Shown: one piece after another, positions 2,449 through 2,724 of the stretch
Layout: each line of letters starts with the position of its first letter
Numbering within the stretch: the first letter of the stretch is position 1
From: Escherichia phage phiX174
Length of the DNA: 3,164 bases
Direction: 5' to 3' (one strand)
Sequence record: Z35638.1
Notes under the pieces: generated by a model
Told to the model about the DNA's origin: nothing
What the model saw: the letters and a program-made list of their open reading frames with translations, nothing else
Databases searched by the model: none
Translations under genes and position numbers: made by a program

Positions 2449-2724
2449 ATGGTACGCTGGACTTTGTGGGATACGCTAGCTTTCCTGCTCCTGTTGAGTT
2501 TATTGCTGCCAAGCTTGCTGATCATGTTCATCCCGTCGACATTCAAACGGCCGGTGAGCTCATGGAAGGCGCTGAATTTACGGAAAACATTATTAATGGC
2601 CTCGAGCGTCCGGTTAAAGCCGCTGAACTGCAGCCGGTTACCTTGCGTGTACGCGCAGGAAACACTGACGTTCTTACTGACGCAGAAGAAAACGTGCGTC
2701 AAAAATTACGTGCAGAAGGAGTGA
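2449..2724 (+). CDS. E: phiX174 lysis protein E (91 aa), a single-gene lysis protein that inhibits MraY; placed downstream of tac/lacO
   Basis: Translation from ATG 2449: [91 protein letters not shown], with the hydrophobic N-terminal transmembrane segment and basic C-terminus typical of E. It lies in the +1 frame inside D as in the phage, with GAGG at 2436-2439 as SD. The track ORF 2401..2724 starts at an upstream TTG; the true start is the internal ATG. Confidence 0.93.
2475..2642. other. Cluster of engineered restriction sites inside E/D: NheI 2475-2480, HindIII 2511-2516, BclI 2519-2524, SalI 2535-2540, EagI 2548-2553, SacI 2556-2561, XhoI 2601-2606, PstI 2628-2633, BstEII 2636-2642
   Basis: Nine palindromic 6-7 bp sites within 168 bp seen directly; each is synonymous in the E frame and coincides with an amino-acid change in the D frame relative to recalled native phiX174. 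Matching vector sites (HindIII, polylinker PstI/SalI/SacI) are absent elsewhere by manual scan. Confidence 0.75.

Follow-up and report, generated by a model that had tools for sequence, protein, structure and literature searches.

Why would the lysis gene E of phiX174, a gene that lies within another gene, D, be rebuilt with a dense series of restriction sites when almost any change made in one frame is felt in the other? The question is raised by a stretch of DNA of 3164 nucleotides from Escherichia phage phiX174 (record Z35638.1), referred to below as the window, i.e., the whole stretch analysed. A preliminary description, prepared from the letters and their open reading frames, proposed that E had been recoded with about nine restriction sites, silent in E and missense in D, and that a designer had sacrificed D to obtain a scaffold for cassette mutagenesis of E. 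Here, this proposal is examined against natural phage sequences, restriction maps, simulated recodings and the rival explanations.

The 3164-bp window turned out to be an entire circular plasmid: its end-to-start junction is contiguous and occurs with 100% identity in other pUC-derived records. Records of pUC-type and pUC-derived vectors match about 85% of the window at 99.7–99.9% identity, and the parts of a pUC-type vector are all present (bla, a ColE1-type origin, the lac promoter and lacZ-alpha). The remaining landmarks define a cassette in which the phage insert was cloned as a BamHI-EcoRI fragment behind a tac promoter. The features are as follows:

201–1061: bla ORF, matching the Pfam beta-lactamase families
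2240–2245: EcoRI site, left end of the cassette, within AAGCT-GAATTC-AGCTT (2235–2250)
2336–2341: BamHI site, junction of the tac fragment and the phiX174 insert
2341–2763, + strand: phiX174 insert, equal to phiX174 nt 460–882 and comprising D codons 25–152, all of E and J codons 1–12
2764–2769: EcoRI site, junction of the phiX174 insert and pUC lacZ-alpha

The AAGCT-GAATTC-AGCTT junction looks like a filled-in HindIII end joined to an EcoRI linker; such filling-in would explain the loss of HindIII there, leaving a single HindIII site at 2511. Nothing is left of the pUC polylinker that would lie between HindIII and EcoRI. Sites for KpnI, SphI, XbaI and SmaI were not found anywhere in the circular plasmid, HindIII, PstI, SalI and SacI each cut once, in all cases within the phiX174 insert, and the unique BamHI site is the one at the left junction of the insert. 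It is because of this deletion of the polylinker that the nine sites discussed below, and BamHI as well, are single-copy. The plasmid is an artificial pUC-type construct in which the phiX174 lysis gene E has been rebuilt as a modular gene.

Over its 423 nt the insert aligns without gaps to many phiX174 isolates and to phage S13 with 95.0% identity. In both EF380009 (phiX174 isolate AP100) and NC_001422 the annotated genes are D at 390–848, E at 568–843 and J at 848–964. An ungapped comparison with AP100 gives 402 identical positions out of 423, hence 21 substitutions, every one of them located in 2475–2637; from 2341 to 2474 there are no differences from phiX174. Compared with wild-type phiX174 D/E/J in these two records, the plasmid shares the AP100 E protein, the E ribosome-binding site, the C-terminal region of D and the start of J, and it adds the 21 engineered substitutions with their nine sites and a truncated D gene with 14 missense changes.

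Against NC_001422 one further difference appears, phiX nt 833 G>A (window 2714), which changes residue 89 of E from R to Q. The A at 2714 falls in none of the engineered sites and does not alter the D protein; it is present in all 25 of the top phiX174 and S13 matches listed. Judged by this distribution, R89Q is a strain polymorphism inherited from the parental phage stock and not a part of the recoding; its interpretation as an engineered or accidental mutation of E was rejected on the same grounds, namely its presence in those 25 best-matching records listed and its position outside the sites. The earlier assertion that E reads as native throughout is therefore correct with respect to most phiX174 isolates and S13 and has to be qualified for NC_001422, which has R89 where the plasmid has Q89.

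The gene itself and its translation signal are located as follows:

2436–2439, + strand: native Shine-Dalgarno sequence GAGG of E, 9 nt before the ATG at 2449, unchanged relative to phiX174
2449–2724, + strand: gene E, 91 codons plus stop, encoding the E protein of AP100

The start codon, the native ribosome-binding site and the first 8 codons of E are all unaltered. Fifteen codons were changed, all 15 synonymously, and the 91 residues coincide one for one with those of the EF380009 E protein, in line with the original reading of this frame. The protein matches the Pfam family PF04517 (Microvir_lysis) with E=1.8e-22 and 79 bits (cut-off 25), and chain B of PDB entry 8G02, 'Lysis protein E', with E=1.8e-53. 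By these comparisons it is the authentic phiX174 lysis protein E. The N-terminal stretch of E is the transmembrane region that has the lytic, MraY-inhibiting activity. Since the protein is unaltered, SlyD-dependent, MraY-targeted lysis would be expected upon induction.

The nine restriction sites within E, all of them named in the preliminary description, were found at the following positions (substitutions are relative to AP100):

2475–2480: NheI GCTAGC, E codons 9–11, substitutions at 2475 and 2478
2511–2516: HindIII AAGCTT, E codons 21–23, substitutions at 2511–2514, with Ser22 TCA->AGC
2519–2524: BclI TGATCA, E codons 24–26, substitutions at 2520 and 2523
2535–2540: SalI GTCGAC, E codons 29–31, substitution at 2538
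2548–2553: EagI CGGCCG, E codons 34–35, substitution at 2553
2556–2561: SacI GAGCTC, E codons 36–38, substitutions at 2556–2559, with Ser37 TCA->AGC
2601–2606: XhoI CTCGAG, E codons 51–53, substitution at 2601
2628–2633: PstI CTGCAG, E codons 60–62, substitutions at 2628 and 2631–2633, with Ser62 TCG->AGC
2636–2642: BstEII GGTTACC, E codons 63–65, substitution at 2637

The interval given for the recoding, 2475–2642, coincides with the span of these sites, NheI supplying its first base and BstEII its last. Twenty of the 21 substitutions lie inside these sites. The remaining one, at 2634, affects the last base of the Ser62 codon and is explained by its neighbour, since PstI needs AG at 2632–2633 and thereby forces the TCN codon to become AGC. 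The same device was used three times: serine codons at E residues 22, 37 and 62 (2512–2514, 2557–2559 and 2632–2634) were moved from TCN to AGC, with all three bases replaced in each, and it is this shift that allowed HindIII, SacI and PstI to be fitted with serine retained.

A scan with all commercial enzymes recognising at least 6 bases revealed exactly nine new unique recognition sequences, the degenerate AccI, AvaI and BanII sites being subsumed by these. In a circular search each of the nine occurs once in the 3164-bp plasmid, so that the restriction map bears out their uniqueness, and none exists in native phiX174 nt 460–882, which removes the possibility that they were simply inherited from the phage. 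The starts of successive sites are separated by 36, 8, 16, 13, 8, 45, 27 and 8 bp. The close packing described earlier is therefore real, and its range has to be corrected from 10–45 to 8–45 bp.

Such a density is beyond chance, as had been asserted, and the sites are engineered. The 168 bp that hold them contain 9 palindromic hexamers, as compared to 2.5 +/- 1.6 in shuffled sequences (P about 0.002), and other 168-bp stretches of the plasmid have at most 6. In 20,000 simulations, 15 codons of E were recoded synonymously at random; these recodings added 1.0 hexamers on average and 7 at most, so that none matched the 8 gained by the construct. The resulting scaffold is uneven, in that the last 26 codons of E have no site at all; 6 of the 9 sites are in E codons 9–38, the N-terminal stretch described above as the transmembrane, lytic region. 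One of the sites is also awkward in ordinary hosts. Dam methylation blocks BclI, whose recognition sequence TGATCA contains GATC, and the site at 2519–2524 can be cut only in DNA from a dam- host.

A set of purely synonymous changes could in principle have served to optimise the codons of E, or to tune its expression, for E. coli, the more so as some of the new codons are the commoner ones (CTT->CTG, ATT->ATC). By the same token, other changes go toward rarer codons (CTC->CTA, CGT->CGG); just 15 of the 91 codons were altered, all of them at restriction sites, whereas the native ribosome-binding site and the first 8 codons, unaltered as noted above, were left alone. This makes optimisation a highly improbable motive. 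Whether or not it was intended, an effect on expression can be considered separately. CTA (Leu10) and CGG (Arg63) are rare codons in E. coli, and E expression could shift because of them. That the 15 synonymous changes, some of them to rare codons, together with the altered local mRNA modify E translation or the timing of lysis seems unlikely; if they did, the plasmid would, without having been designed for it, test how strongly the expression of E depends on the nucleotide sequence that it has in common with D.

The overlapping frame fared quite differently:

2343–2729, + strand: truncated and mutated D frame, codons 25–152 plus stop, lacking its own start codon and ribosome-binding site

A full D protein, the external scaffolding protein of the phage, has 152 aa. 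As D starts at phiX nt 390 and the insert only at 460, the gene is 5′-truncated, as the preliminary description had it: codons 1–24, with the ATG and the ribosome-binding site, are missing. Correspondingly, the match to the Pfam family of gpD (PF02925) covers profile positions 23–141 only. Fifteen D codons were changed. The idea that the sites are missense in D applies to 14 of them (P69A, R70S, V81K, I82L, Y84D, Y85H, N90D, C95G, L96E, I97L, V111L, F121Q, A122P and F123V) and fails for one, L120, where TTG->CTG is silent. The D sequences quoted in the preliminary description, both native and recoded, proved to be correct, and the reported clustering of the D changes at the sites is evident from the positions of the substitutions listed above. 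In an alignment of six natural D proteins, from two phiX174 isolates, two G4-like phages (NC6 and ID11), lillemer and alpha3, 12 of the 14 missense positions are invariant, and the other two, 97 and 123, vary conservatively. The D remnant is presumably non-functional.

The D frame is open upstream across tac and the lac operator as far as a GTG at 2295, giving a mechanical ORF of 144 aa (2295–2729, + strand). The first in-frame ATG of this ORF is D codon 98, and an in-frame TTG at 2349 is located 17 nt past a vector AGGA, a distance too great for efficient initiation. Translation of a D′ product is probably poor or does not occur.

The damage to D raises the question of whether D itself was the target, either in order to inactivate the remnant or to reduce homology with the phage against recombination with, or rescue of, phiX174, the restriction sites being a by-product. 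The 14 missense changes, 12 of them at otherwise invariant residues, are what one would then expect to see. Yet D, lacking codons 1–24 and its start signals, had been disabled beforehand, every substitution is accounted for by a site or by the Ser codon that a site forces, and random recoding never gives so many sites. Moreover, no stop codon was introduced in D, although this is the simplest way to kill it. A recoding aimed at D is thus very unlikely, and the changes in D are better understood as a consequence of recoding E.

That consequence follows from the geometry of the overlap. E begins 178 nt downstream of the D start, and with this offset third positions of E codons coincide with first positions of D codons; as a result, nearly every change that is silent in E is missense in D. 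Among the 810 possible single-base changes in E codons 2–91, 196 are synonymous in E, and merely 4 of the 196 are silent in D as well, all being Leu TTR/CTR switches in D. In other words, 98% of the E-silent single changes (192/196) alter D. The construct uses one of the four doubly silent changes, phiX 747 T>C (window 2628). For whole sites the constraint is absolute. When every palindromic hexamer was placed at every position, with two free bases allowed on each side, 53 new placements were silent in E, and none of the 53 was also silent in D. The statement that overlapping frames constrain recoding is therefore borne out quantitatively. The related statement that the designer sacrificed D is right in that D was abandoned, and misleading in that it implies a decision: the loss of D is forced by frame geometry, not chosen, as no E-silent placement spares it.

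The sequences that surround the insert show how E could be controlled:

2144–2173, + strand: pUC lac promoter, TTTACA, 18-nt spacer, TATGTT (promoter scan), in tandem with and upstream of tac
2267–2294, + strand: tac promoter, TTGACA, 16-nt spacer, TATAAT, with 12/12 consensus matches (promoter scan)
2301–2321, + strand: lac operator AATTGTGAGCGGATAACAATT, downstream of tac, read from the sequence

A lac operator confers IPTG-inducible expression in a host that overproduces lacI. A first lac operator is seen at about 2181–2201, after the pUC lac promoter, so each of the tandem promoters has an operator. There is no lacI on the plasmid, so that a host overproducing lacI would be needed to carry the lethal E gene. 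Within 2050–2800 no intrinsic terminator was detected.

Taken together, these features make it very probable that the plasmid is an IPTG-inducible scaffold for cassette, or segment-replacement, mutagenesis of E. In such a scheme, transcription from lac and tac, repressed through the operators by the lacI of the host, would yield E upon addition of IPTG, and E would be translated from its own unchanged ribosome-binding site. The nine unique sites would split E codons 9–65 into small replaceable segments, any of which could be exchanged for a synthetic oligonucleotide duplex or used as a fusion or deletion point, and BamHI and EcoRI would let the whole gene be transferred. The D frame, already cut at codon 25 and devoid of start signals, would necessarily be abandoned. 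We infer that E is expressed from the plasmid and is lytic. Searches of the accessible literature and sequence collections for a publication or record describing the plasmid or stating its purpose found none. To be weighed against this reading are that negative result, the site-free last 26 codons of E, the Dam-sensitive BclI site and the rare codons introduced.

The same unique sites are equally suited to a second use, as defined positions at which E could be truncated, fused in frame to another protein such as a reporter, or have domains swapped. The retention of lacZ-alpha downstream, with the stub of J in frame with it (ORF 2729–3019), is compatible with this use. Against its being the main one, several sites are 8–16 bp apart, which is finer than fusions need and typical of cassette replacement. 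Although the two uses are not mutually exclusive, it is rather doubtful that fusion end-points were the principal purpose, and the mutagenesis scaffold is the reading retained here. The stub (J′, the first 12 J codons) continues across the EcoRI site at 2764 into lacZ-alpha without a change of frame, and the resulting J′-LacZ-alpha ORF (2729–3019, + strand) encodes 96 aa, for which a Pfam scan returned no family. This ORF could be a downstream reporter or a 1-in-3 coincidence.

A search for other copies of the recoded gene gave a uniform result. No exact match to a 55-nt or a 45-nt engineered stretch was found in genome, viral or metagenome contigs, and a look-up for products identical to that of the D-frame ORF (144 aa) returned no match. 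PLSDB holds just wild-type 5386-bp phiX174 circles with 92.1% identity to the E query and no recoded copy. Several such entries are filed as 'plasmids' of Vibrio, Cellulomonas, Edwardsiella and E. coli; they are as long as the phiX174 genome and align with the entire E query, and 92.1% is the value expected for unrecoded phiX174. They are most likely sequencing spike-in contamination of the assemblies concerned.

These searches also bear on the notion that the window contains a natural, divergent phiX174-like sequence, for which its 95% identity to phiX174 speaks and nothing beyond that. The sequence sits inside a pUC/tac plasmid, its differences are limited to 163 bp and all make six-cutter sites, D residues conserved across three genera are destroyed, and no copy turned up in the phage, plasmid, genome, viral or metagenome collections searched. 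The context, the confinement of the differences to sites and the loss of conserved D residues effectively refute a natural origin, which retains next to no probability.

How does the plasmid compare with systems already known? Genes rebuilt with evenly spaced, unique, silent sites, known as cassette-mutagenesis or 'synthetic gene' scaffolds, were part of the protein-engineering practice of the 1980s–90s. The plasmid resembles them in that its sites are unique, silent in the target and close together, and in that the vector was stripped of competing sites. It differs from them in that the target is embedded in a second frame, so 'silent' holds for one gene only. The construct is also akin to the inducible cloned-E lysis plasmids used in E genetics and for bacterial ghosts, having E under a repressible promoter on a multicopy plasmid and encoding the protein of PDB 8G02. 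The plasmids of this type known to us carry the native E nucleotide sequence; this one is recoded at 15 E codons.

A further parallel is provided by decompressed, or modularised, phiX174 genomes, in which overlaps between genes are reportedly removed to make every gene editable by itself (bioRxiv 10.1101/2020.06.10.143693). Both designs face the same problem, that edits of one frame damage the overlapping frame. The decompressed genomes reportedly duplicate sequence and keep both genes, whereas the plasmid abandons D. Recent studies of this kind treat the overlap problem on the scale of the entire genome: a preprint on the complete mutagenesis of phiX174 reports the highest share of essential nucleotides, 59%, in overlapping coding regions (10.64898/2026.07.25.740675).

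The observation made in the preliminary description is thus confirmed, and its interpretation is supported with small corrections. In general, the plasmid represents a known kind of routine gene engineering; it is not a natural feature and reveals no new biology. As a deliberate product of such engineering, and not a biological discovery, it has small scientific weight. It can nevertheless be put to two uses. The first is a clean annotation of the record, which separates the engineered bases from the one inherited polymorphism and should not list the D-frame ORF as functional. The second is as a quantified teaching example of the constraint imposed by the overlap of E within D. The plasmid is a small, tidy instance of the phiX174 overlap problem: with E placed within D as it is, adding any six-base palindromic site alters at least one of the two proteins.
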